Source of the DNA: Candidatus Omnitrophota bacterium
GTDB lineage: Bacteria; Omnitrophota; Gorgyraeia; Duberdicusellales; 4484-171
Assembly: GCA_018818105.1 (NCBI GenBank)
Contig: JAHISK010000130.1
Span: 1-58,822 of the forward strand
Direction: 5' to 3'
DNA: 58,822 bases
In this document: positions 93 through 18,375 of the stretch, one piece after another
Numbering within the stretch: the stretch's first letter is position 1
Layout of the letters: the number at the start of each line of letters is the position of its first letter
The notes under the pieces: model-generated
What the model was told of the DNA's origin: nothing
What the model saw: the letters and a program-made list of their open reading frames with translations, nothing else
Databases searched by the model: none
Program-made: the position numbers and the translations under genes

Positions 93-356
93 CAATGCGA
101 AGGGTTATATATGTTATCGCGACCTATTTAAGAAAGAACCGAAAATGACTTATCTATGATAGTTTTTCTGTACGCAAGAAATCAAGAGGAATAGATAAAC
201 GATTTAATGAAGTTACGCTACTGCCATCGCTCCAGCCGAATAACGCTTCCATCCGAACTCGTTTTATTTTCCTTTGGCTCTAACCCATAGTGTGTCTGCA
301 ACACACTAATCACTTTATCAGAATAGATTTTATTAATCAAGGTAGGCGATAAAAAT

Positions 357-6695: not shown

Positions 6696-7622
6696 TTAAT
6701 TATTACCAATGTAGTAACATTTTTTATTAACAACTTTCTCTTTTATTTTATTTTCTTTAATAAAATTGTTAACGCATATATTCACTTCTTTGACGTCTAA
6801 CCCTAAAGAGCCCACTAAATCATCTAATGTTGCTGGACGCCGCCTTAAATATTCCATAATCTTATCTTGAGCGTTAACCAAGCATTTCTTTTGTTCTTTG
6901 TTAAGAGATGACTCAGCGACTTCAATATTAGAATCAATTATTTCCTTTATTTTATCTATCTTCTCTTTACTCGATAGTTTTAACTTAATCGGCGCCGGTC
7001 TTACGGGAAGATTAAGCTGTATTTTATCCGGATTTACCTTATCGACTATTCTTTTAAACTCTTTAGCTTCTTTTATAGAATCATTTATATTGGCTAGAAT
7101 CATAATTTCCAACCAAATTTGGCCTTTAAACTCTTTTCGTAACGCGATTAACCCCTCAACTATTTTTTTAAAAGTAATTCCTTTAGCGGGACGATTTATT
7201 TCATGAAAAGTCTTAGCGCCAGCCGCGTCTAAAGACGGCACTATTAAATCGGCTTCCTTTAATTCTTTTCTAACATCTTTACGGTATAAAAGAGAAGAAT
7301 TAGTAATCACGCATATAGGATAACGATTTTTAGTGATTTTTTTTACAATCCGTATTAATTTATCTAAATCTTTATGCAACGTTGGTTCGCCTGAACCAGA
7401 AAAGGTTATATAATCAATTTTAGGCTGTTTTCGTAATATATCTTTAAGTTCTTTCTTAAACACGACTAAATCAACCTTAAAAAAACGACGCGCGGTCATA
7501 GTCGTAGTAACTCCTACTTGACAATAAAGACAATCAAAAGAACACACTTTTTTAGGGATTAAATCTACCCCTAAAGAAAACCCTAAGCGTCTTGATAAAA
7601 CTGGACCATAAAAGTAACTCAT
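6696..7622 (-). CDS. Radical SAM protein (Tyw1-like bacterial family) with a C-terminal HTH
   Basis: YGPVLSRRLGFSLG, CSFDCLYC, FSGSGEPTL. Confidence 0.85.
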   Translation of the reverse strand: MSYFYGPVLSRRLGFSLGVDLIPKKVCSFDCLYCQVGVTTTMTARRFFKVDLVVFKKELKDILRKQPKIDYITFSGSGEPTLHKDLDKLIRIVKKITKNRYPICVITNSSLLYRKDVRKELKEADLIVPSLDAAGAKTFHEINRPAKGITFKKIVEGLIALRKEFKGQIWLEIMILANINDSIKEAKEFKRIVDKVNPDKIQLNLPVRPAPIKLKLSSKEKIDKIKEIIDSNIEVAESSLNKEQKKCLVNAQDKIMEYLRRRPATLDDLVGSLGLDVKEVNICVNNFIKENKIKEKVVNKKCYYIGNN

Positions 7623-7718
7623 TAGGTTATTATATAATATTATTACCTTAATTTCATGTGTTTATTTTAGACCTATCAGGGACATCCTTACCTACTAACA
7701 GGAAAACAAAAATCTCCC

Positions 7719-8762
7719 TTACAATTTTTTTAATTCTTTTAAGGCAGATTTGAGATGTTCTAAAGACTGGCGGTCAGCAAGCAACGCGTACTTGGGAGTA
7801 TCTATAAAAACAACATCATTTATCCCCATAACTAAAACTTCTTTACCGGCACCGTTGACATATATAAGATTATTTTTTCCTTCCTTAACAAAAACTTTCC
7901 CCTTCTTTACATTATTATTTTTCCTTTTTGATAAAACTTCATATACAGCATTCCAATTTCCAAAATCTTTCCATTTAAAACTTCCTTTAACTACCCTGGC
8001 GCGTTTAGTTTTTTCCATAATTGCTTTATCAAAAGGAATTTTATCTATTCTTTTATACAGCTGATCTAACTTTCTACCTGAAGGGATAGCTTTATCTAAA
8101 ACCTTACTAAAAGCGTCATAAAATCCATAATATTTTCTAAACTCATTATCTAAAACTTCTAAGGTAGATATAAATATACCGCTATTATAATAAACGCTGC
8201 CTTTTTTTATAAGATTCTTGGCACAACTAAGAGAAGGTTTTTCCAAGAATTTCTTCACAGAAAAAACATCTTTACTAATTTCTTTCCCCGCTTGAATATA
8301 GCCAAAATTAGAAGTAGGCTGAGTAGGTACAATACCTAAAGTACATATCCCACCTCTACACGCTAAAGCTAAAGCTTTTTTTAATACCGAATAAAAATGG
8401 GTTTCTTCATCAATAAGATGGTCTACGGGAGAAATAACAACTTTACTTTCTAAGGGGAATCTCTTTTTCAAATAAAAAAGAGAAAGCAAAACTGCCGGCG
8501 CGGTATTTTTAGATTCCGGTTCAAAAATAATATTTTCTTTTTTAATCTGTCCTAATTTATAAAGCGCAAAGGCTTCTCCTTTATTAGCCGCTAGAAAAAT
8601 ATTTTCACGGGAAGTGACCTTCAAAAAACGCTTTATCGTTAACTCTAATGGCGAAAACCCAAAAACATCTAAGAAATTTTTGCTCCTATACTCTGAAAGC
8701 GGCCATAACCTTAAAGACTGCCCCCCACAAAGAATCAAAACAATGGGTTCATTTGATTTCAT
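7719..8762 (-). CDS. manC: Mannose-1-phosphate guanylyltransferase-like
   Basis: ILCGG.S.RLWPLS, EPESKNTAPA, P.DH, FGYI, FLEKP, NSGIF, W.DFGNW. Confidence 0.85.
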   Translation of the reverse strand: MKSNEPIVLILCGGQSLRLWPLSEYRSKNFLDVFGFSPLELTIKRFLKVTSRENIFLAANKGEAFALYKLGQIKKENIIFEPESKNTAPAVLLSLFYLKKRFPLESKVVISPVDHLIDEETHFYSVLKKALALACRGGICTLGIVPTQPTSNFGYIQAGKEISKDVFSVKKFLEKPSLSCAKNLIKKGSVYYNSGIFISTLEVLDNEFRKYYGFYDAFSKVLDKAIPSGRKLDQLYKRIDKIPFDKAIMEKTKRARVVKGSFKWKDFGNWNAVYEVLSKRKNNNVKKGKVFVKEGKNNLIYVNGAGKEVLVMGINDVVFIDTPKYALLADRQSLEHLKSALKELKKL

Positions 8763-10218
8763 TTAATTCCTTTACCCTTTTAGAAAAATGTCCGCCAGTA
8801 TACCCATCAATAATAGCATCTAATTCTTTTAACCGCAACTGTTTTTGAAATAACTCATCACCAAATAATGAAGAAGTTTTAATTTCTCTCTTTAACCGCA
8901 ACCGCTCAAAATATACCCTATTTAGTTCATCAATCAAATCTAAGCGCAACTGAGTATTAAGCCTGCTTCTTGTATCAACATCATCTTCATAAGAATTCCA
9001 AATAACATTAGCAACATCCCAGGAAAACCCCACCGACCAATCACGCGGCCCAACAAAAGCCCTCCCATCATAGTTATTTGTACCCGCGGTTCCATAAATA
9101 GTCTTATTAAAATCTAAATCCACACTAGGGAACAACGCTCTAAATTTAAGGCCATTTCTCCACCTCTTTATTTTATCAGGATGTATCTCGTTATACAGTA
9201 ATGCCGCGGTTTGAATTTCTTCTATGGCAGGCTCATTCTTTAACAATTCTTCTAGTCCATTCTTTGCTGAACCCTTTAAAAAAGAATCTTCGCTTACAAA
9301 AACACCGTTTGAAGTAGCTAAATAAACCCTATCATTAAAACTGACTTCTACCCAATTAATCTTTGCGGACAACACTCCCGCGGAAATATTCTGAGATATT
9401 TTTTGGTCTAAATCAACCTTTAAAAATCCTTTGGAAGCAGCTAAATAGATAGAATTTTTCTCATTTTTTTTCTGCCCTAAAGAATTTATATCCAGATTAT
9501 CTATCCCTTCAATATACAGTTTAACCCAACTTTGCCCCTTATCTAAAGAAACAAACAATCCTTGATTTGTTCCCAGCCAAATTTTGCTTTCATCGAAAAT
9601 ATCTACTTTTATAATATTCGCGATTATTCCAATTTTATCTTCAACATCAGCACTTCTAACAACAAACACTCTCCTCGCTGAATTCTGCTCTGTTAAAACA
9701 TAAACTCCTTTGCTGGAAGCAATATATACCGCCTCTTGGGTCGCGGCAATAGAATACACAGCCGCGTCATTTCTTAAATTTCTGATCCTTTCCCAATTTA
9801 AAATATCATCACTGGCAAAATAAATCCCGGCTGTTGTTCCTACATAAATTTTGTCCCTAACCTTAACTGCAGTTAAAATTGATTCCTCATCACTAGATGT
9901 AAATACCGTCTCAACCTTATTACCTACCTTAAAAATATGCCGACTCGCCACTACATACAAAATATTAGCTAAATAGGGATCAAAAAAAAGATGTTGAACC
10001 GTTTCATCCTTAAAAACAGACACCTTTTCAAAAGTCTGGCCGCCGTCCTGACTCTTAAAAAGAGAATTATCCGAAGCAATATACATAAGCTTTGGATTCA
10101 AAGGCGAAACAACTACCCGCCTAATCCGAGCATCTTCCACGCCCTCGACCCTAGCAAACATTGAAAAACCGTTATGGAAAGGAAAAACCAAAAGCAAGAA
10201 AAAAATAGCAAATCTCAT
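8749..10218 (-). CDS. Secreted beta-propeller (BNR/two-component-propeller-like) protein with a C-terminal helical, TolC/OEP-like segment; start revised to ATG 10218
   Basis: GGAGG RBS before ATG 10218; signal peptide MRFAIFFLLLVF; S.DGG.TF, SLDKGQSW and repeated YxAT/GTxxG blades. Confidence 0.7.
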   Translation of the reverse strand: MRFAIFFLLLVFPFHNGFSMFARVEGVEDARIRRVVVSPLNPKLMYIASDNSLFKSQDGGQTFEKVSVFKDETVQHLFFDPYLANILYVVASRHIFKVGNKVETVFTSSDEESILTAVKVRDKIYVGTTAGIYFASDDILNWERIRNLRNDAAVYSIAATQEAVYIASSKGVYVLTEQNSARRVFVVRSADVEDKIGIIANIIKVDIFDESKIWLGTNQGLFVSLDKGQSWVKLYIEGIDNLDINSLGQKKNEKNSIYLAASKGFLKVDLDQKISQNISAGVLSAKINWVEVSFNDRVYLATSNGVFVSEDSFLKGSAKNGLEELLKNEPAIEEIQTAALLYNEIHPDKIKRWRNGLKFRALFPSVDLDFNKTIYGTAGTNNYDGRAFVGPRDWSVGFSWDVANVIWNSYEDDVDTRSRLNTQLRLDLIDELNRVYFERLRLKREIKTSSLFGDELFQKQLRLKELDAIIDGYTGGHFSKRVKELNEIK

Positions 10219-10257
10219 TATAAACACCTCCTTATTTTTTTGCTCCACAAAAAAATA

Positions 10258-10342
10258 GAGCATTGGAGCATTAGACCATTTAAACATTAGAAAAAATAAA
10301 AAAATGCCCAATGCGGTCTAATGCTCCAATGTTCAAATGCTC
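10258..10342. repeat. Octamer-period inverted repeat (gagcattg/caatgctc family) in the 5' leader of the beta-propeller gene
   Basis: Left arm gagcattg-gagcatta-gaccattt-aaacatta; right arm ctaatgct-ccaatgtt-caaatgct. Confidence 0.75.
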
Positions 10343-10372
10343 AAAAATAGAAAATTTTACCCTCTCATATAA

Positions 10373-10402
10373 TAGACGATTGAATTGACTAAATTCTTTC
10401 AA
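10373..10402 (-). promoter_or_regulatory. ECF-type promoter, copy 1 (TGAAAG-N17-CGTCTA)
   Basis: Minus strand TTGAAAGAATTTAGTCAATTCAATCGTCTA; same boxes and spacing as copies 2 and 3. Confidence 0.8.
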
Positions 10403-10526
10403 AAAATATTTAAATTTTTTACAAGTATAAAAGTATAAACTTCCCCACACCTAAAAATCTAAATAATTATCCCCAAAGGTAATTTTCTTGAAAAATGATA
10501 GATAATGACGTTTTGGCAATAAAAAG

Positions 10527-10599
10527 TGCCGAGGAAGGGAGTTGAACCCCTGACGCAGGGATTTTCAGTCCCTCGCTCTACCGCCTGAGCTACCTCGGC
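10527..10599 (-). tRNA. tRNA-Phe(GAA), CCA not encoded
   Basis: GCCGAGG/CCTCGGC acceptor stem, D-arm GCTCAGGCGGTAGAGC, anticodon arm AGGGA-CTGAAAA-TCCCT, GTTCAAC T-loop. Confidence 0.97.
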
Positions 10600-10690
10600 A
10601 TTCAAATAAGACTAGCGAACAACAGATATTTTTGAAGTTTTAATCTAGAATTCACATTAGAACACAATACGCAAATTCTAGATTAAAAGA

Positions 10691-10718
10691 ATTATAGCAT
10701 AGGAGTGTTTTTAGGCAA
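10691..10718 (-). promoter_or_regulatory. Sigma70-type promoter for tRNA-Phe
   Basis: TTGCCT-N16-TATAAT with an extended TG. Confidence 0.5.
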
Positions 10719-10890
10719 GGATTTTTTGAAGTCAAAAAAATCATTTCATATTTTTTACAGCTTCTCCAATTCTTATTTATTTTATCTACAATTTCTCTAG
10801 GATTATTTCTTTTCATAATAGTCATAATTATACCAAACATCCCTAAAAATAGGAATATATATTTTACGTGCTCTTGTCGCGATTTTTAGC

Positions 10891-11262
10891 TCAACCTACC
10901 CGCCAAAACGTAATATTCTGATAATGCGTAACGCGTTCTATACTGCTGTTCTCCCCTAAAACAATACATACCGCGTCTATTCGATAAACACCAGCATGCT
11001 TTTTTAGCGCGGTATATGCCGCGGCATTTCTCTTTAGTTTATTAATTTTTTTCCAGTTTATCGAATCTTCCGGCGAACCAAACTGCTGTCCAACCTTAGT
11101 TCTTACTTCCACAAACACAAGAGCCTTTTTATCCCAGGCAATCAAATCGATTTCGCCATATTTATTTCTATAATTCCGCTCAATAATTTCATACTTTTTC
11201 TCTCGTAAATACTTCGCGGCAATCAGCTCTCCGTTATAACCGATTTCAAGATTTTTGTTCAA
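10891..11262 (-). CDS. yraN: YraN-family nuclease (UPF0102)
   Basis: G..GE..A..YL, RNYR...GEIDLI, VFVEVRT, RIDAV. Confidence 0.93.
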   Translation of the reverse strand: MNKNLEIGYNGELIAAKYLREKKYEIIERNYRNKYGEIDLIAWDKKALVFVEVRTKVGQQFGSPEDSINWKKINKLKRNAAAYTALKKHAGVYRIDAVCIVLGENSSIERVTHYQNITFWRVG

Positions 11263-12797
11263 CCGCCATCCTTATCCTGCGGACGGTACTGCAAAGCCTC
11301 GGCTATATGAGAAACCTCTATATCCTGAACATTTTCTAAATCAGCAACGGTACGGGCGATTTTTATCATTTTAAAATACGCCCGCGCAGAAAGCTGAAAA
11401 TTCGCTCCAGCATTAATAAGCACTTGATTTACTTCTTTAGACAGCCGGCAGTATTTTTTAATATGCTTATTACGCATTTCAGCGTTAGTATAAATACCTT
11501 CTTTATCAAACCGTCTTTGCTGTAAGTCTCTTGCTTTTACTACCCTCTGCCTAATTTTTTCCGATAATTCTAATGACTTTTTTATCCTTTCATCACAGGA
11601 AAGGACTTTTATATCTACCACAGGAACTTCAACATATAAATCTATTCTATCTAAAACCGGCCCGGAAATCCTTTTTTTATATTTTTCAATCTCACGCCGA
11701 GTACAAATACAAGTTTTCTTAGGATGATATAGATAACCACAAGGACAAGGATTCGCTGAAGCAATCAGCGTAAATTGAGACGGAAAAGTTATTTTTTCTT
11801 TGCTTCGGCAAATGCTAATGCACCCGTCTTCCAACGGCTGACGTAACGCTTCCAACGCTGTTCGGGGAAATTCGTTAAACTCGTCTAAAAACAATACTCC
11901 CCGATGAGCCAAACTCACCTCTCCGGGTTTTATTCTACTTCCTCCACCGATAAGTCCCGCGGGAGAAATTGTATGGTGCGGCGCCCTGAAAGGACGCGTT
12001 GTCATTAGTGAACCTCGCGGCGGGATACGCCCGGAAGCAGAATAAATCTTGGTTACATCAAGCGATTCTTTTTCATTTAACAACGGCAGAATTCCCGGAA
12101 ACGCCCGCGCCAACATTGTTTTTCCTGAACCAGGACTGCCTACCATAAAAAGATTATGATTACCTGCCGCGGCAATTTCCATTGCTCTTTTTGCCTGCTC
12201 CTGACCTAAAACTTCTGACATATCAAATTCCGCTGCACTAACACTCTGTTCACTTTGATTGACTTTATATACTGCCAGTTCAAAAGTTATCTGACCGCAA
12301 AGAAAAAATAGTAACTGGCTAAGACTTTCCACGGGATACACATTAACACCTTTAACAACCGCGGCTTCATTAGCTGAAGCTTTAGGAAGAAATATGTTTT
12401 TAATACCTTTTTCTCTAGCAAACAACGCTAATAATAACGCGCCTTTAACATGCCTCAGGGTACCATCCAAAGAAAGTTCCCCAAAAAATACACTTTTTTC
12501 AGGCAATTTAAAACCCATAACTGTTGCTAATATCCCAACTGCTATCGGCAAATCATAAAACGATCCCTCTTTAGGCACATCCCCCGGCGCTAAATTAACC
12601 ATAATTCGTCTCTCGGGGAATTGAATGTTTGAGTTTATAATTGCTGTTCTCACCCGCTCCTTACTCTCAGCCACAGCTTTAGTCGGCAATCCCACTATAT
12701 CAAAAGCAGGAAGCCCTCGTGAAGCCACGTTAACTTCAACCTCCATTTCCATAGTATTAAGTCCCAAATTTAGTGCCGAAGCCACTTTAACTAACAT
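11259..12797 (-). CDS. comM: ComM/YifB Mg-chelatase-like helicase
   Basis: VGLP, ESKERVR, GELSLDG, GSPGSGKTM, PFRAPHH, LAHRGVLFLDE, NPCPCG, SGPVLDRID. Confidence 0.95.
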   Translation of the reverse strand: MLVKVASALNLGLNTMEMEVEVNVASRGLPAFDIVGLPTKAVAESKERVRTAIINSNIQFPERRIMVNLAPGDVPKEGSFYDLPIAVGILATVMGFKLPEKSVFFGELSLDGTLRHVKGALLLALFAREKGIKNIFLPKASANEAAVVKGVNVYPVESLSQLLFFLCGQITFELAVYKVNQSEQSVSAAEFDMSEVLGQEQAKRAMEIAAAGNHNLFMVGSPGSGKTMLARAFPGILPLLNEKESLDVTKIYSASGRIPPRGSLMTTRPFRAPHHTISPAGLIGGGSRIKPGEVSLAHRGVLFLDEFNEFPRTALEALRQPLEDGCISICRSKEKITFPSQFTLIASANPCPCGYLYHPKKTCICTRREIEKYKKRISGPVLDRIDLYVEVPVVDIKVLSCDERIKKSLELSEKIRQRVVKARDLQQRRFDKEGIYTNAEMRNKHIKKYCRLSKEVNQVLINAGANFQLSARAYFKMIKIARTVADLENVQDIEVSHIAEALQYRPQDKDGG

Positions 12798-13644
12798 AAT
12801 ACTTGCCTTCTTCTTTACTCACTATTCCCCTAATATGCATAAGAGAAAGAACTGTTCCCAACTCTGCCGCCGAAACTTTTATTACTCGAGATAATTCATC
12901 TATCTCACAAGGCTCCTGAGCTAACTTCTTTAAAACTATCTGCTCCATCCGACTCAACCCTAAACTTGCTATATTGTCCCGCCCATTTTCTTGAGGATAT
13001 AGCCCATAACTTCCTAATATATCATTGGCTCCAGTTACTATACCAGCACCTTCTCTAATCAATTGCAGAGTTCCTTGAGACACAGCGCTGGTAATGGGTC
13101 CGGGCACAGCGAAAAGTTTACGTCCATATTTTTTAGTAAGCGCGGCGGTAATCAAAGAACCACTCCTCTGCCCTGCTTCAACAACTAGAGTTGCTTGAGA
13201 TAATCCAGCTACAATCCTATTTCGCCGAGGATATGTCCAACGCGCGGGAAGAAAATCACCTTCAAATTCAGAAATAATAAGCCCTCCATTTGCTAATATC
13301 TGCTTGTATAACTCTTCTTGATATTCAGGATGAATAAGGTCAATACCACAAGGCATAACCGCGATAGTTCTGCCTCCTGCCAAAAGAGCCGCTTTATGCG
13401 CCTGAGCGTCAATTCCATACATAAACCCTGAAACAATAGTTATCCCCGCGCGAGCCACTTTAGATACTAACTGATCCGTAACACGCCTGCCGTAACCGGT
13501 CATTTGCCGCGAACCTACAACCGCTAAACAATTGTCAAAAAGGCTACTATCCCAAACTCCCTTATAATAAAATCTTTGCGGGGGTTTATTAATTTGTTTA
13601 AGTAATTTAGGATATTTTAAATTATTGATTTGAACTACGTTCAT
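12787..13644 (-). CDS. dprA: DNA-processing protein DprA
   Basis: LAVVGSR, IVSGFMYGID..AH, RRNRIVAGLS, SGSLITA, AVPG, C-terminal winged helix. Confidence 0.95.
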   Translation of the reverse strand: MNVVQINNLKYPKLLKQINKPPQRFYYKGVWDSSLFDNCLAVVGSRQMTGYGRRVTDQLVSKVARAGITIVSGFMYGIDAQAHKAALLAGGRTIAVMPCGIDLIHPEYQEELYKQILANGGLIISEFEGDFLPARWTYPRRNRIVAGLSQATLVVEAGQRSGSLITAALTKKYGRKLFAVPGPITSAVSQGTLQLIREGAGIVTGANDILGSYGLYPQENGRDNIASLGLSRMEQIVLKKLAQEPCEIDELSRVIKVSAAELGTVLSLMHIRGIVSKEEGKYYVS

Positions 13645-13888
13645 ACGCTAACAACACCACTTCATTAAGCGCCTCTTTAGACGATGCCGTCAAAGGAAAA
13701 GCGTTACTATACCATTTCCCATCTTTACCTTGTTCACGAGGTCCTCCTACAAATAAACCATTCTTTCCCTTGATTACACGAAACCCCTTTACTAAAAACT
13801 CTCCTGAAATAGCCACATCACATATAGCTTTGATCGCGCCGTCACCATTAAACCTGTAAAGCTTATTAACCTTGAAATCTAAATTCAT
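13622..13888 (-). CDS. spoVG: SpoVG-family nucleic-acid-binding protein; start revised to ATG 13888
   Basis: KAICDV, VKGFRVIKGKNGLFV..P, DGKW....FPL; GGAGG RBS. Confidence 0.88.
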   Translation of the reverse strand: MNLDFKVNKLYRFNGDGAIKAICDVAISGEFLVKGFRVIKGKNGLFVGGPREQGKDGKWYSNAFPLTASSKEALNEVVLLAYERSSNQ

Positions 13889-13957
13889 ATCTACCACCTC
13901 CTTTTAATGATCCGCCTGCGGCGGAGAATTTACCGACTTTCTTACCCCTCACTTATA

Positions 13958-13987
13958 TAGACGTAATATCTCAAAGAATTCTTTCAA
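13958..13987 (-). promoter_or_regulatory. ECF-type promoter, copy 2, upstream of spoVG-dprA-comM-yraN
   Basis: Minus strand TTGAAAGAATTCTTTGAGATATTACGTCTA. Confidence 0.82.
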
Positions 13988-14163
13988 TTTTTTTAAATTT
14001 TTTTGAAAAATGTACTGCGGAAGGTTTTTTCTCGAATTACCCTATTCTTCCTTGACCCTTGACCCAGAATCATTTTAAATTTTTAAATATTATTTCTTTT
14101 AAATGCTAATTTTAAAATGTTAATTGTAAATTTAAAATTGCCGCCCCTTGACCCTACTAATAT

Positions 14164-14742
14164 CTACAATCGACTTTTAAAATGGCGGGAGATATCTTTA
14201 TCTTTATCTTTATCTTTATCTTTATCTTTATCTTTATTTTTATCATGAGAATGGCGACGCCAAGAATCAAGCACCATAATTAGGGTACGACCACCCTCAC
14301 TTTCAAACGACCAGCGTATACCCAAAATAAGCGTAGCGACTAAAAACTGAATGAAATATTTAGGCGCAAAAAATGATAAAAGAAACGAAATAATCATACC
14401 AATAAAAAAAATTCTTTTTCTCATTATTCCACCCTTATTAACTTCTTTATCCTTCCCTATTCCCAACGCTAATTTTGTCCTATTAATTAATTTTCGCGGC
14501 ACCTGATCAAACCGGCGTTTCTTATGCATTACCTGCGCTAAAGAAGCTATATTAAGCCGTCGTAAACAAAAAACACAACCAGCAATATGATACTCAATAT
14601 CCTGACACCTCTCCTTACTTAATTTACCACCCAAATATTCTAGCAAAGCCTCATCATCATAACAATCAGAAGAGCTAACGTCTTTACTAAACTCTACATT
14701 CGTTTTCAAATATTTCTTAATTAATTCGTTTATCTTATCCAT
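14164..14742 (-). CDS. Zinc-binding (ZAS, zf-HC2) anti-sigma factor with two TM helices
   Basis: HIAGCVFC (HxxxCxxC), preceded by LLEYLGGKLS; downstream of the ECF sigma. Confidence 0.85.
   Translation of the reverse strand: MDKINELIKKYLKTNVEFSKDVSSSDCYDDEALLEYLGGKLSKERCQDIEYHIAGCVFCLRRLNIASLAQVMHKKRRFDQVPRKLINRTKLALGIGKDKEVNKGGIMRKRIFFIGMIISFLLSFFAPKYFIQFLVATLILGIRWSFESEGGRTLIMVLDSWRRHSHDKNKDKDKDKDKDKDKDISRHFKSRL
14194..14244. repeat. In-frame hexamer microsatellite (ATCTTT)x7 plus a degenerate unit, encoding a DK repeat
   Basis: Read directly; protein reads DKNKDKDKDKDKDKD. Confidence 0.9.
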
Positions 14743-14759
14743 ATATACCCTCTAAATAA

Positions 14760-14789
14760 TAGACGAAATAACTCCATCTTTTCTTTCAA
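14760..14789 (-). promoter_or_regulatory. ECF-type promoter, copy 3, upstream of the anti-sigma gene
   Basis: Minus strand TTGAAAGAAAAGATGGAGTTATTTCGTCTA, followed by an AGAGGG RBS and ATG 14742. Confidence 0.82.
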
Positions 14790-14816
14790 TTTACCAAAAA
14801 AATCTCCTTTAAAAAT

Positions 14817-14869
14817 AATTATTTAGATTTTCAGTGGTTAGAAAAGTCTTTAATACTTTCCTATACCGT
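14817..14869. repeat. Dispersed ~52-bp repeat, second copy at 18105-18155
   Basis: 22-bp exact match AATTATTTAGATTTTCAGTGGT; both copies end in ATACCGT. Confidence 0.8.
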
Positions 14870-15438
14870 TAAAAACTATCGCCCAAACCTCTTTTCTCTA
14901 ATTCTTTTTTAATTTTCTCTTTAGCCCGGGAAATTACAGTTGAAACAGTATTAATAGATATCCCTACTATGCCGGCAATTTCTTTATGCGTCCTCTCTTG
15001 AAGCAGATTTAAAGAAATAATTATTCTTTCTTTACCGGATAAAGCTTTGATAACCTCCTGGGTTACAAAAAACATATCTCTGTTAAAAAGATTTTGTTCA
15101 AAAGTATAATCCCTAAACACCGGAACATCAAAAACTAGATTCTGTTCCAACCGTACTTTATTCCGCATGAAATCAACTGTTTTGTTCGAAGTTACCATCG
15201 CCAGCCAACCAGGCATGAATTTAAAGTCTTTTAATTGCCTAAGCTTCTCACCTTTAAAAATTGTCAAAAACACTTCTTGAAAAATATCATCAATATCCGT
15301 TTCGTCATACCTAAAACCGCCTGTAGCTAACCGTTTGCGTATCGCCCAATACACTAATCTTGAGTATTTTTGGATAAATACATTCCATGCTTTTTTATCG
15401 TTCTTTAGGCACCGTTTTATAATTTTTGAATCATTCAT
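14869..15438 (-). CDS. ECF RNA polymerase sigma factor
   Basis: Region 2 (DIDDIFQEVF, WLAMVTSNKTVDFMR) and region 4 (EIAGIVGISINTVSTVISRAK); 189 aa. Confidence 0.93.
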   Translation of the reverse strand: MNDSKIIKRCLKNDKKAWNVFIQKYSRLVYWAIRKRLATGGFRYDETDIDDIFQEVFLTIFKGEKLRQLKDFKFMPGWLAMVTSNKTVDFMRNKVRLEQNLVFDVPVFRDYTFEQNLFNRDMFFVTQEVIKALSGKERIIISLNLLQERTHKEIAGIVGISINTVSTVISRAKEKIKKELEKRGLGDSF

Positions 15439-15468
15439 AACTGTCGCGGCAGCATAATATATTGGCTT

Positions 15469-15879
15469 CTACAAAGAGCTTTCTCTCTCTATAAACTGTA
15501 TTATTTCCTCTTCGCTTACTTCTTCATAGTCGTCGGAATCAGCAAAATACTCTCTAAGAATAGCTATTGGCAGAAAAACATAAAAAGATAAAAATTTAAT
15601 ACAGGATTTAAAAGGGCCTTCAAATAACTCTGGATATTCGTTTCGGTAATACTTTTCAATGAATTCTCTTCTTCTCTTAAACCTCTCCCTTGCTAATTTT
15701 AAATTCTGAGGATATTGGCGCGATATATCTACCGTAAAGTAAGGCATTTCTGTTCTTCCCTTCTTAACTAAATATCCCTTATTTACTTCATTTCCTCTTA
15801 CAAATCTATACGCTGGAGAACAGCCTGATAAAATAAACAAAACAATTATGCCTATAGTTAAAATTTTTTTCTTATTCAT
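15469..15879 (-). CDS. Hypothetical lipoprotein
   Basis: MNKKK plus hydrophobic core plus LSG-C lipobox. Confidence 0.7.
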   Translation of the reverse strand: MNKKKILTIGIIVLFILSGCSPAYRFVRGNEVNKGYLVKKGRTEMPYFTVDISRQYPQNLKLARERFKRRREFIEKYYRNEYPELFEGPFKSCIKFLSFYVFLPIAILREYFADSDDYEEVSEEEIIQFIERESSL

Positions 15880-15903
15880 TTCCTACCCCCTACGCCTATC
15901 ATA

Positions 15904-16090
15904 GGTATTGTCAAAAGTTTCTTGTTTTTTTAAACTCTAAATCCTAAACACTAAACTCTAAATAAATCAAAAACATCAAACCCTAAACTAAAAACATTAA
16001 TAAATACAGTGTTTTCTCTTAAATTATCTTGTTTTAGATTTTGTGTTTTTCTCATTTGGGTTTATTTAGAGTTTAGGATTTAGTGTTTAA
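15904..16090. repeat. GGTATTGTCAAAA end followed by a heptamer hairpin (ctaaact/atcctaa family)
   Basis: Arms aaactctaaatcctaaacactaaactctaaataaa / tttatttagagtttaggatttagtgttt. Confidence 0.75.
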
Positions 16091-16225
16091 TGAAACTCAG
16101 ATAATATTCTAAGGTAATCTTGATTTTTTTTCATAGTGCCACCTTAATTATCTTTTAAGAACTAAGCATACTATCGAATAAATATTTAAAAAGCTATCCA
16201 CGGAAAGACCAAAGAATAAAATTAA

Positions 16226-16606
16226 TTAAGCGGGTAAAATCCGATTTACCATTTTTAATAATTCAGGCGCGGTTACAGGCTTAGCAATCACGTAATGCTT
16301 ACCTGTCTTTTTCACAAAACATTCTTCTTCTTTCTTAAGTACGCCAGTCAAAAACAGCACGGGAATTGTAGCCGTCATAGGATCATCAGCTAAAGTGGTA
16401 GCAACATCACTGCCATCCATGTCAGGAAGAACTATGTCTAAAATAATAAGGTTGGGTTTTTGACGCATAGCTAAATCGAGAGCTTCTTTACCTTTAGTAG
16501 TAGAAATTACTGTATAATCAGCGCGGCGTAAAATATTGGCTAAATGCTCCACAACCTGCTCTTCATCATCTACTAATAATATTTTCTGCTGCTGACTCAT
16601 TAACAT
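16226..16606 (-). CDS. Single-domain response regulator (receiver)
   Basis: ILLVDDE, LIILDIVLPDMDG, FLTG, AKP. Confidence 0.92.
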   Translation of the reverse strand: MLMSQQQKILLVDDEEQVVEHLANILRRADYTVISTTKGKEALDLAMRQKPNLIILDIVLPDMDGSDVATTLADDPMTATIPVLFLTGVLKKEEECFVKKTGKHYVIAKPVTAPELLKMVNRILPA

Positions 16607-16676
16607 AAATTATCACTCTTAACTATATATTTGTCAATAAAAATAATAAGCCGATAGTAAAAGAGAGGGGACGGAG

Positions 16677-16870
16677 TTAACTTATTAACTTATACTCCCG
16701 CCCCTCTGCTATCTTTTCTCCTTTGGTAATATTCTTGGATACCACGGAATTGGAAATACTAAGAATTCTTCTCGGTCTCTATCGTCTTTAAATATTTCTT
16801 TACGCTCTATTCCTCGGATAAATAAATGATACACTCCTCCGATAACGTTTAATCGTTTCCCTCTTGGCAT
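16677..16870 (-). pseudogene. Internally deleted REP-associated/IS200-like tyrosine transposase (RAYT) remnant
   Basis: ATG 16870 reads MPRGKRLNVIGGVYHLFIRGIERKEIFKDDRDREEFL (typical Y1 transposase N-terminus). Another frame reads SISNSVVSKNITKGEKIAEGREYKLIS*. Flanked by inverted AGGGGACGGAGTTAACT motifs. Confidence 0.75.
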
Positions 16871-16873
16871 GTA

Positions 16874-17012
16874 TATATTTTATTTGGCATTTGGCAAAAA
16901 GAAAATGTCAATAGTTAATTAGTTAACTCCGTCCCCTATTTTTTATATTTTATTTGGCATTTGGCAAAAAGAAAATGTCAATAGTTAATTAGTTAACTCC
17001 GTCCCCTATTTT
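16874..17012. repeat. Perfect 69-bp tandem duplication (16874-16942 / 16944-17012)
   Basis: Read directly; period 70; each copy contains AGTTAACTCCGTCCCCT. Confidence 0.92.
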
Positions 17013-17697: not shown

Positions 17698-18078
17698 TTA
17701 TTTCTCCGCTAAAACTCTACTTATAGCATCGAGGAGATCTTCCCTGAAAACAGGTTTTGCTAAAAGGTGATAATTGCCCGCTTTTTTTATCATCTGTTCA
17801 TCTTCTTTTGTGTTAAGGCCGGTTAAGAAAATTATAGGAATAGCATAGGTCAAAGAATCTTGTGAAAGAATTTGAGAAATTTCTCCTCCCATCATATCAG
17901 GAAGAATAATATCTAGAATAATCAAATCCGGCTTAGAATTTTTCGCTAACTCGACAGCCTCTTTTCCGCTAGTAGTAGCAATCACTTCATAATTAGCACC
18001 GCTTAATATCTTTTCTATAAACGTAAGAATCGCTTGATCATCATCTACTATTAGTATTTTTTTTATATTATTTGCCAT
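17698..18078 (-). CDS. Single-domain response regulator (paralog of 16226..16606)
   Basis: ILIVDDD, LIILDIILPDMMG, FLTG, AKP. Confidence 0.92.
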   Translation of the reverse strand: MANNIKKILIVDDDQAILTFIEKILSGANYEVIATTSGKEAVELAKNSKPDLIILDIILPDMMGGEISQILSQDSLTYAIPIIFLTGLNTKEDEQMIKKAGNYHLLAKPVFREDLLDAISRVLAEK

Positions 18079-18180
18079 CTTTTACAAGAAAATTCATTTA
18101 GGCGAATTATTTAGATTTTCAGTGGTATAGAAAATCTTATAATTCCCAATACCGTAAATTATCACTAATTTTTCAATCTG

Positions 18181-18375
18181 TCAAGATACTTTCGGCTTAT
18201 CAACAAGAGCTTTTTCAATTAAAATTCTTAATTTATTAACTAACATTCTCGGCAAACGAAATTGAGAAGTCAATGTTGGCGTTGAAATCACAAACTCAAA
18301 CATATTCGGATTATCTTTAACTTTACGGATAGATACTTCCATACGAAATCCACTACTACTCATTGTCACCTCCAT
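18181..18375 (-). CDS. Small hypothetical protein (start may be ATG 18363)
   Basis: GGAGG lies inside the annotated 5' end, before the second Met; protein-like composition. Confidence 0.6.
   Translation of the reverse strand: MEVTMSSSGFRMEVSIRKVKDNPNMFEFVISTPTLTSQFRLPRMLVNKLRILIEKALVDKPKVS

Follow-up and report, generated by a model that had tools for sequence, protein, structure and literature searches.

In a 58,822-nucleotide stretch of Omnitrophota DNA (hereafter the window; contig C63 of G000, the metagenome-assembled genome of an uncultured bacterium), a gene for a sigma factor of the extracytoplasmic function (ECF) type is followed by a gene for a candidate anti-sigma factor and by an operon of spoVG, a dprA paralog, comM and yraN, and an exact bipartite motif, TTGAAAGAA-N15-CGTCTA, precedes the anti-sigma gene, the operon and a gene for a secreted beta-propeller protein. 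That this motif is the promoter of the neighbouring ECF sigma factor is well supported by sequence comparison, and it is likely that the sigma factor is gated by the anti-sigma factor and governs a signal-gated programme of recombination and single-stranded-DNA handling, with mobile-element and defence genes sharing its promoter. Omnitrophota are uncultured, very small bacteria. Full-text searches of the literature found no paper on their sigma factors, gene regulation or competence genes, and none on ECF control of dprA or comM or on an ECF sigma factor driving recA; the first-pass annotation of this DNA had likewise not recognised the circuit as one already described.

The motif has exactly three matches in the window, all on the minus strand and all without a mismatch (Table 1). 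In 100 dinucleotide-preserving shuffles of the window a mean of 0.24 matches was obtained, and none of the shuffles reached three. In the whole assembly of G000 (2.03 Mb in 157 contigs, 36% G+C, 92% completeness) the pattern TGAAAGAA-N15-CGTCTA occurs at 12 exact sites, as compared with about 0.03 expected from the base composition by an arithmetic estimate, and a reversed control pattern gives no match. The claim of the first-pass annotation, that three minus-strand sites of identical spacing stand upstream of three genes, is therefore borne out exactly. The spacer measures 15 nt in 12 of 12 sites, and the sites have in common an A/T-rich tract immediately upstream and TATA...GAGGG downstream; at the three window sites a TATA-like stretch and GAGGG follow within 13 nt. 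Because the spacer sequences differ between the sites, apart from two duplicated copies on contig C123, the motif is not a repeat family. Downstream sequence is readable for 11 of the sites, each of which faces an open reading frame (ORF) on the same strand that starts 41-223 nt away; the twelfth lies 302 nt from a contig end. A position weight matrix derived from the 12 sites gives them scores of 43-76 bits, followed by a site on contig C33 with 33.9 bits and by all others with at most 15 bits, a gap that is partly circular because the matrix was trained on these same sites. Two one-mismatch matches (on contigs C2 and C57) were rejected as sites, as both lie within ORFs and have no flanking features, and two-mismatch matches are uninformative, because their number (40) approaches that of the reversed control (27).

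The motif was compared with the distribution of the sigma factor in 61 genomes, comprising G000 and 60 relatives. Orthologues of the sigma factor are present in ten of the relatives, with 48-70% identity. All ten have the exact motif in the gap between the sigma gene and the anti-sigma gene; in the window, too, this site falls between the stop codon of the sigma gene and the start of the anti-sigma gene. Eight of the ten have a further exact site upstream of spoVG; in G044 the spoVG operon is convergent and its site reads CGTCTT, and in G046 the operon is found on a different contig and has the site there as well. Six of the ten have the exact motif only at the sigma locus, once or twice. Altogether the exact motif occurs in 11 of 11 sigma-bearing genomes versus 3 of the 50 others, a contrast that overstates the independence of the observations because the sampled genomes are related; the reversed control pattern matches in 2 of the 61. 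Among the genomes without the sigma factor, G025 has a single site, which stands ahead of spoVG at 268 nt from the start of a contig, and G035 a single site without flanking features. Two genomes, G014 and G027, have kept the operon of the dprA paralog, comM and yraN and have neither a sigma orthologue nor the motif; in G014 a TTGACA-type promoter-like sequence is found before spoVG-dprA-comM-yraN instead. The promoter type at this operon tracks the presence of the sigma factor in nine of nine genomes. These patterns lend good comparative support to the central proposal of the first-pass annotation, an ECF switch over DNA-processing genes.

A scan of species-representative genomes furnished 47 Omnitrophota loci with relatives of the sigma factor, which were divided into a close clade of 22 loci (sigma identity at least 48%; three of these have less than 600 nt of downstream sequence) and a distant set of 25 loci (28-48%). 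In the close clade the anti-sigma gene follows the sigma gene in 21 loci, with the strict motif between them in 20. The spoVG gene is present in 19 of the 22, invariably with the motif upstream (17 in the strict and 19 in the relaxed form), and dprA and comM are each found in 16 and yraN in 14. In the distant set the anti-sigma gene follows in 23 loci and spoVG is present in 18, of which 15 have TTGAAAGAA-N15-TGTCTA upstream of spoVG, whereas dprA is present in only two, and comM and yraN in four each. Since the distant loci mostly are without these three genes, the conserved core consists of the sigma factor, the anti-sigma factor, the promoter and spoVG, with the recombination genes joined to it in some of the loci; the proposed synteny of sigma factor and dprA holds for most of the close clade and for only two of the distant loci. 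Four sigma residues (I33/A, K35/E, V88/L and D89/N) track the CGTC versus TGTC form of the -10 element, but this is only a lead, as it is confounded by relatedness.

The phylum was further sampled with 151 genomes, 71 from the same class and 80 from other classes. The pattern TTGAAAGAA-N15-YGTCTA is present in 12 of them, all belonging to the same class (12 of 71 versus 0 of 80), with 1-10 sites per positive genome and the highest number in G000; the reversed control is found in 2 of the 151. For 40 of the 43 sites outside G000 the sequence was retrieved and the downstream ORFs were read. In five distant genomes the motif leads into recA, either directly (G084, G086, G158 and G106) or by way of a Y1 gene that is followed by recA (G143). 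Pfam identified one of these recA genes, with which the others share 69-97% identity, and in all five cases a gene for an HtrA-like protease follows. The motif also precedes spoVG-yraN-comM in G086, G158, G106, G139 and G166, spoVG alone in G084, and the anti-sigma gene in G086, G106 and G139. Six genomes have Y1 transposase-like genes behind it and four have ORF6N genes; there are also single cases of AbiEii, toxin-antitoxin-like pairs, a TnpB helix-turn-helix fragment, a group II intron reverse transcriptase, a LAGLIDADG protein, an Eco57I-like methylase and an AAA_14-DUF4143 ATPase. The extra sites of the close clade show a similar assortment, with Y1 genes in G018 (three times), G013, G034 and G004, ORF6N genes in G020 and G034, a beta-propeller homologue in G020, and in G004 an integrase-like gene, judged by eye from its N-terminus.

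Two observations from these surveys stand by themselves. ORF6N (KilA-N-like) genes are inserted within the spoVG-dprA-comM operon in loci L050, L051, L053 and L067, with up to five copies in G018. Furthermore, ilvD-ilvB or ilvBNC operons, named by eye from their N-termini, follow the motif in three distant genomes (loci L136, L148 and L159, from G086, G158 and G139, respectively); they were unexpected and match none of the themes proposed here.

The gene content claimed for the locus (an ECF sigma factor, a protein with an H-x3-C-x2-C motif, SpoVG, DprA, ComM, YraN and a beta-propeller protein) was confirmed by Pfam and NCBIfam profiles; Rfam, ARAGORN and a PDB profile search were used as well. 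In the 189-residue sigma factor no Pfam match to region 3 was found. It scores 70.9 bits against the general sigma70-ECF model TIGR02937 (cut-off 42.9), which is the only one passed, as none of the named ECF subfamilies of NCBIfam reaches its cut-off. The nearest solved relatives by sequence are SigW (PDB entry 5wuq) and sigma-E (1or7). The sigma inventory of G000 comprises RpoD, a 273-residue group-3 sigma factor and the window ECF sigma factor, which is the only clear ECF sigma factor in this 92%-complete genome; contig C3 encodes a weak sigma-like protein of 171 residues with sub-threshold matches to region 2 and GerE. A further candidate was rejected, as it proved to be a response regulator. 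Separately, a giant gene on contig C119 (an ORF of at least 7185 aa) contains a sigma-like stretch at about 17741-18205, with weak matches to Sigma70_r2 (21.6 bits) and Sigma70_r4_2 (26.6 bits).

In the candidate anti-sigma factor the zinc-type motif is made up of C27, H52, C56 and C59, and these four residues are the same in all 10 of 10 orthologues and all 72 of 72 homologues compared. The protein has weak matches to zf-HC2 of Pfam (E 0.0046; 17.5 bits, under the cut-off of 22.2) and to the RsrA model TIGR03988 (27.3 bits, under the cut-off of 62.5), and a PDB profile search likewise returns RsrA, at E 0.35. Two hydrophobic segments (residues 110-127 and 129-143), parted by 1-3 residues with a conserved P-K-Y turn, are followed by a basic, strongly conserved tail. 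The hydropathy profile suggests a hairpin in the membrane whose two ends face the cytoplasm, leaving no real domain outside. In a large protein collection the family has 76 homologues, which are unnamed or called 'hypothetical protein', with a single exception, labelled 'Flp pilus assembly protein TadB' by its source; wherever an organism is given, it is Omnitrophica. A (KD)n repeat, KNKDKDKDKDKDKDKD (14164-14230, minus strand), precedes the conserved C-terminal end of the protein in G000 and is not present in the relatives.

The operon starts with spoVG, for which the ATG at 13888 is the likely start, giving a protein of 88 residues. The operon DprA consists of a Rossmann domain and a winged helix without an N-terminal extension, and the yraN start overlaps the comM stop. 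Whereas spoVG, comM and yraN are each present in a single copy, G000 contains a second dprA of 359 aa (contig C2, 14011-15090, minus strand) in an aroK-dprA-topA-xerC/D arrangement, 38% identical to the operon copy, and this canonical copy has no motif site. A motif upstream of dprA orthologues, as the first-pass annotation had asked for, is seen at the operon paralog in most of the close clade and not at the canonical copy of G000. Operon-type DprA (at least 56% identity) occurs in 9 of the 61 genomes, always alongside the other type; genomes without it have the other type only, apart from G020, in which this query found neither. ComM and YraN are reported to work as a pair of helicase and nuclease in resolving the D-loop of transformation, with their genes colocalised in 34% of the genomes that have both (PMC13663708), and DprA recruits ComM (10.1101/2024.10.21.619469). 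Because DprA, ComM and YraN act together on incoming DNA, spoVG-dprA-comM-yraN makes up a coherent recombination module.

Table 1. Features of the sigma locus and its surroundings in the window, and genes downstream of motif sites elsewhere in G000
Feature	Position	Strand	Evidence or remark
ECF (group 4) sigma factor, 189 aa	14869..15438	-	Pfam Sigma70_r2 26.1 bits, Sigma70_r4_2 38.5 bits, both above cut-offs
P(anti-sigma) site, TTGAAAGAA-N15-CGTCTA	14760..14789	-	exact match; 17 nt before anti-sigma ATG
Anti-sigma candidate, 192 aa	14164..14742	-	N-terminal C27/H52/C56/C59 zinc-type motif (H-x3-C-x2-C and upstream Cys)
P(spoVG operon) site	13958..13987	-	exact match; about 70 nt before spoVG
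5' leader element AGTCGGtAAATTCTCCGCC-GCA-GGCGGATCATTA...GGAGG	13897..13938	-	ends at spoVG ribosome-binding site
spoVG	13622..13897	-	Pfam SpoVG E 9e-16; ORF from GTG 13897
dprA, second short paralog, 285 aa	12787..13644	-	PF02481 E 1e-69, DprA_WH; TIGR00732 238 bits, cut-off 191
comM (YifB-type Mg-chelatase-like AAA+ helicase), 512 aa	11259..12797	-	TIGR00368 569 bits; Pfam
yraN (UPF0102 nuclease family), 123 aa	10891..11262	-	PF02021 E 1e-25; NF009154 109.3 bits, cut-off 109
tRNA-Phe(GAA)	10526..10599	-	ARAGORN; Rfam 67 bits; between operon and beta-propeller site
P(beta-propeller gene) site	10373..10402	-	exact match; 154 nt before ATG
Hairpin in beta-propeller 5' leader	10261..10331	-	long, nearly perfect; U-rich stretch after
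Secreted BNR/Sortilin-like beta-propeller protein, 489 aa	8749..10218	-	weak Pfam matches, all under cut-offs
NTP_transferase gene	7719..8762	-	PF00483 E 2e-34; start overlaps beta-propeller gene end
Type I-C cas3-cas5-cas8c	C23, site 178-206		site 60 nt before cas3; Cas3c E 1e-224, Cas5c, Csd1
FG-GAP/beta-propeller protein, 1156 aa, then RHS-repeat protein, 1513 aa			downstream of G000 motif site
RhuM-Fic protein			downstream of G000 motif site; matches phage-defence candidate PDC-S23, E 2e-129
DUF4062-HATPase_c_4 gene, then Y1 transposase-like gene			downstream of G000 motif site
Y1 (IS200-like) transposase-like gene, 187 aa			downstream of G000 motif site
Small unnamed coiled-coil protein gene, 3 copies			each downstream of G000 motif site

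These findings are consistent with the following mechanism. We infer that the sigma factor is bound by the N-terminal zinc-motif domain of the anti-sigma protein, which would keep it at the membrane until its release by a signal. The freed sigma factor would then direct RNA polymerase to promoters consisting of an A/T tract and TTGAAAGAA-N15-CGTCTA, and transcription would probably start a few bases downstream of CGTCTA, close to the conserved GAGGG. Negative feedback would come from the site ahead of the anti-sigma gene, while the spoVG-led operon would supply the second DprA paralog to load RecA, along with ComM as helicase and YraN as nuclease. The third window site would drive the beta-propeller gene and the nine further sites in G000 other genes; in related families recA would be driven by the same promoter. 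By analogy, we read the programme as resembling the late, post-uptake part of competence, or a substitute for the SOS response.

Besides the relatedness of the genomes and the circularity of the matrix, a number of observations weigh against this reading. The usual ECF promoter combines an AAC-type -35 with a CGT-type -10 element; the -10 element here, CGTCTA, fits this form, and the -35 element is TGAAAG, without AAC, in 128 of 128 unique sites collected. No motif site lies upstream of the sigma gene within the window, so that the positive autoregulation common among ECF factors is missing. The annotation of the anti-sigma protein as a ZAS member is only partly sustained, since the C-H-C-C residues are invariant and the protein nevertheless remains under every cut-off of the curated ZAS models in Pfam and NCBIfam. 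G004, which is 91% complete, has three motif sites, and no sigma orthologue was found in it even by profile. The target set is mixed, and its cas, RHS, RhuM-Fic and DUF4062 members were seen in G000 only. The recA gene of G000 starts about 160-164 nt into contig C152 and has no motif in this upstream stretch, up to the contig end; the ends of C152 and of C92, which carries an orphan site, do not overlap. The comEA-comEC genes, located after leuS on contig C110, have no site either, their best motif match showing five mismatches. Finally, the operon DprA matches the defence protein ShosA with 191 bits.

The doubts about the assignment of the motif itself have little weight in our judgement. It is very unlikely that the motif is read by another sigma factor or an activator, or is a repeat or chance pattern, even though its reading by the window sigma factor rests on sequence comparison, G004 has its three sites without a detected orthologue and contig C3 encodes a weak sigma-like protein. 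The spacers differ (the C123 copies apart), 12 sites are observed where about 0.03 are expected, and the motif tracks the presence of the sigma factor and sits within the sigma locus in nearly all relatives; moreover, it has the form of an ECF promoter, being bipartite and strictly oriented, with a spacer of constant length and CGTC as the -10 element. A possibility of some substance, though one we rather doubt, is a general stress regulon of the thiol-oxidative or membrane type, in which the recombination genes serve DNA repair, SpoVG is a downstream regulator and there is no link to foreign DNA. The C-H-C-C motif resembles that of redox-sensing anti-sigma factors (weak RsrA matches), the anti-sigma protein seemingly has no sizeable external domain, spoVG is the most conserved target, and the motif is carried by recA-htrA operons and, in three distant genomes, by ilv operons. 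In addition, no LexA DNA-binding domain (LexA_DNA_bind) was found in G000, and this domain occurs in 20 of the 61 genomes (1 of the 11 sigma-bearing versus 19 of the 50 others), a weak contrast that is confounded by relatedness. However, no classical oxidative-stress genes (thioredoxin and the like) were found downstream of the inspected sites in G000 and its relatives, and the regulated dprA is an additional paralog beside comM-yraN, pointing to a specialised recombination task.

The first-pass annotation had called the locus a natural-transformation regulon, and a true competence regulator, which switches on natural transformation as a whole, is an unlikely explanation of the data. It would account for the presence of DprA, ComM and YraN in G000 and of RecA in the five relatives, all of which are dedicated or central recombination proteins of transformation according to PMC13663708, and G000 does possess comEA-comEC, seven PilB-like ATPases and two shorter T2SSE-family ATPases. 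The C-terminal domain of the beta-propeller protein also resembles a domain fused to ComEA-type HHH_3 in Myxococcota, which is a lead from the Atlas only. Yet DprA, ComM and YraN are widespread in bacteria, and their presence is thus no proof of transformability; comEA-comEC has no site, the canonical dprA beside topA is outside the regulon, and none of the 11 readable sites in G000 precedes a pilus, comE, comF or ssb gene. Of the genes that the first-pass annotation had named as supporting targets, recA was found behind the motif in the five distant Omnitrophota. The regulon label therefore goes too far: the uptake genes are outside, spoVG comes first among the conserved targets, the dprA under control is an additional paralog, and the targets in G000 are mostly defence, mobile or secreted proteins. 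Another explanation, which we regard as quite improbable, is a defence and mobile-element regulon that senses invasion and turns on CRISPR-Cas and other defence genes, in the manner of DdvS/DdvA of Myxococcus xanthus (PMC6061681, PMC11506125), with the second DprA as a Shosta-like defence protein in place of a recombination mediator. The cas3 gene with its motif, the match of the RhuM-Fic protein to PDC-S23 and of the DUF4062 protein to Argonaute-associated domains, and the AbiEii, toxin-antitoxin-like, group II intron reverse transcriptase and TnpB genes behind the motif in relatives all agree with it, as does the ShosA match. On the other hand, the cas link is found in one genome only, the exact motif is confined to the sigma locus in six of the ten sigma-bearing relatives, and the anti-sigma protein has no external domain of about 900 residues as DdvA has. 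The DprA equivalog score is higher than the ShosA score (238 bits, above the cut-off), and the operon dprA has no neighbour resembling the phosphoribosyltransferase ShosT, being fixed beside comM-yraN with spoVG and comM as neighbours in 16 loci. We therefore retain the signal-gated recombination programme as the likely interpretation.

The proposed circuit shares features with several known systems. Competence regulons of the ComX/SigX and SigH-like types include the uptake genes comE, comG and comF, are transcribed from a cin-box promoter and are not known to have a membrane zinc-motif anti-sigma factor. In G000, unlike in the ComX/SigX regulons, comEA-comEC lies outside the motif set, and unlike ComX/SigX the sigma factor matches the generic ECF model only, with TTGAAAGAA-N15-CGTCTA as promoter in place of the cin-box. 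The likeness consists in the use of an alternative sigma factor that activates dprA and recA together with further late recombination genes in a single regulon, as is reported for ComX/SigX in streptococci and for SigH-like factors in Staphylococcus and Lactobacillus sakei (PMC3364868, PMC4109385). DdvS/DdvA is an ECF sigma factor with a transmembrane anti-sigma factor that controls CRISPR-Cas and CBASS (PMC6061681, PMC11506125). DdvA has a cytoplasmic C-H-C-C zinc three-helix bundle (PMC11506125), to which the C-H-C-C motif here may correspond, the ECF promoter of DdvS lies directly upstream of the cas cluster (PMC6061681), as does the motif here before cas3, in G000 only, and in both cases the regulon is small and partly adjoins the sigma locus. 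In contrast, DdvA has an external TPR-CHAT domain of about 900 residues (PMC6061681, PMC11506125), whereas the protein here has 192 residues and only the P-K-Y turn; the pattern used in the search for DdvS promoters was GTAA-N16-CGT (PMC6061681); the gene for DdvS is driven by DdvS itself, while of the gene pair here the anti-sigma gene alone has the site; and the DdvS regulon is reportedly mainly CRISPR-Cas, whereas the conserved targets here are spoVG and the recombination genes.

The H-x3-C-x2-C motif with its upstream cysteine, the weak zf-HC2 and RsrA matches and the CGTC -10 element resemble SigR-RsrA and other ZAS pairs and SigW-RsiW of Bacillus, and SigW and sigma-E are the closest solved structures. 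Unlike the ZAS pairs, the anti-sigma protein stays under all curated cut-offs, is predicted to be membrane-bound and has a conserved C-terminal tail; unlike in SigR-RsrA, no thiol-redox genes are found at the inspected sites. With LexA and the SOS response the system has in common that recA and recombination genes share a signal with transposase, integrase-like, toxin-antitoxin and prophage-type genes, in a genome in which LexA was not found. It differs in the positive control by a sigma factor instead of a cleavable repressor, and in that recA is, so far, a target in other families only.

A wider interpretation is conceivable, although the chances are against it. In a class mostly without LexA, the ECF sigma factor would be the master switch of single-stranded-DNA recombination (SpoVG, the DprA paralog, ComM, YraN and, in some families, RecA), co-deployed with antagonism and defence functions (RHS, two-partner secretion and CRISPR-Cas), for example on contact with prey or host. 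Killing, the handling of foreign DNA and self-protection would be co-induced, and Y1 transposases and ORF6N genes would repeatedly have acquired the promoter to time their activity. If this were true, the phylum would have its first described regulatory circuit, and the recombination machinery of transformation its first example of control gated by an anti-sigma factor. The locus in any case yields a sharply defined, phylum-specific promoter and a probable sigma/anti-sigma pair, and as the promoter is exact enough for pattern search with almost no background, regulons can be read directly from metagenome-assembled genomes. DprA, ComM and YraN, recently shown to act as one recombination machine, are placed under what appears to be an ECF switch, a form of control that was not found described, and mobile and defence genes would share a host stress promoter much as LexA boxes are used elsewhere. 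The circuit is small, with one sigma factor, one anti-sigma domain and a 30-bp promoter, and is thus suited to heterologous tests.

Some of the motif-preceded genes in G000 outside the window have neighbours of their own (Table 1). One copy of the small coiled-coil protein gene is followed by a gene for an alginate-export-type porin, another by a gene for a 333-residue REP-associated tyrosine transposase-like protein with a DnaA_C helix-turn-helix, and the weak C33 site precedes a fourth family member and a ShlB/TPS pair. In the leaders of the small-protein genes on C38 and C123 a sigma-70-type sequence, TTGACA-N17-TATACT, was seen by eye between the ECF-type site and the start codon, so that these genes seem to have tandem promoters. 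About 17 Y1 transposase-like loci are present in G000, many of which are fragments at contig ends. A motif at all Y1 genes was rejected: it is found within 1.2 kb at C138 and C123 only, the Y1 gene on C82 being the second gene of a motif-bearing unit. The cas8c (Csd1) frame on contig C23 (3084-3475) stops after 97 residues, about 100 nt before the contig end, which indicates either a broken gene or an assembly artefact.

The leader element in front of spoVG recurs in nearly identical form, as AAGTCGGgAAATTCTCCGCC-nnn-GGCGGATCATTA with GGAGG and a start codon, at nine genes of G000 including spoVG and ilvD; the copies outside the window lie on contigs C4, C13, C53, C98, C105 (two copies) and C151. 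It has no Rfam match and its fold energy is no better than that of shuffled sequences (z 0.15). The distant locus L105 has a similar hairpin ahead of its spoVG gene.

The third window site leads into the beta-propeller gene. The C-terminal domain of its product, about 170 residues long (residues 320-489; window 8749-9260), is unnamed. In the Atlas this domain is grouped with hypothetical proteins of Omnitrophota and, as a lead only, with proteins of Myxococcota containing ComEA-type HHH_3 (TM 0.82-0.86), and in other Omnitrophota it recurs as a stand-alone gene preceded by the motif. Homologues of the whole protein or of this domain are located downstream of the motif in G020, G023, L097, L104 and G158. 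The beta-propeller leader (10225-10366) has a minimum free energy of -46.7 kcal/mol (z -5.7), which none of 200 shuffles equals, and its hairpin may act as an attenuator. The palindrome was also considered as a REP-like repeat; this was rejected, as it is unique in G000. Because its start overlaps the end of the beta-propeller gene, the NTP_transferase gene is probably co-transcribed with it; in G023 the same pair follows spoVG.

An Rfam scan of positions 7000-17000 at E 0.1 found nothing besides the tRNA-Phe(GAA) gene, and a scan for consensus sigma-70 promoters and terminators performed no better than on shuffles. The tRNA gene has a sigma-70-like sequence of its own, TTGCCT-16-TATAAT at 10718-10691, and is probably outside the regulon. 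Just upstream of the sigma locus, a 53-residue ORF (16709-16870, minus strand) shares 70% identity with the N-terminal part of the Y1 transposase-like protein encoded on C123 and is probably a gene fragment.

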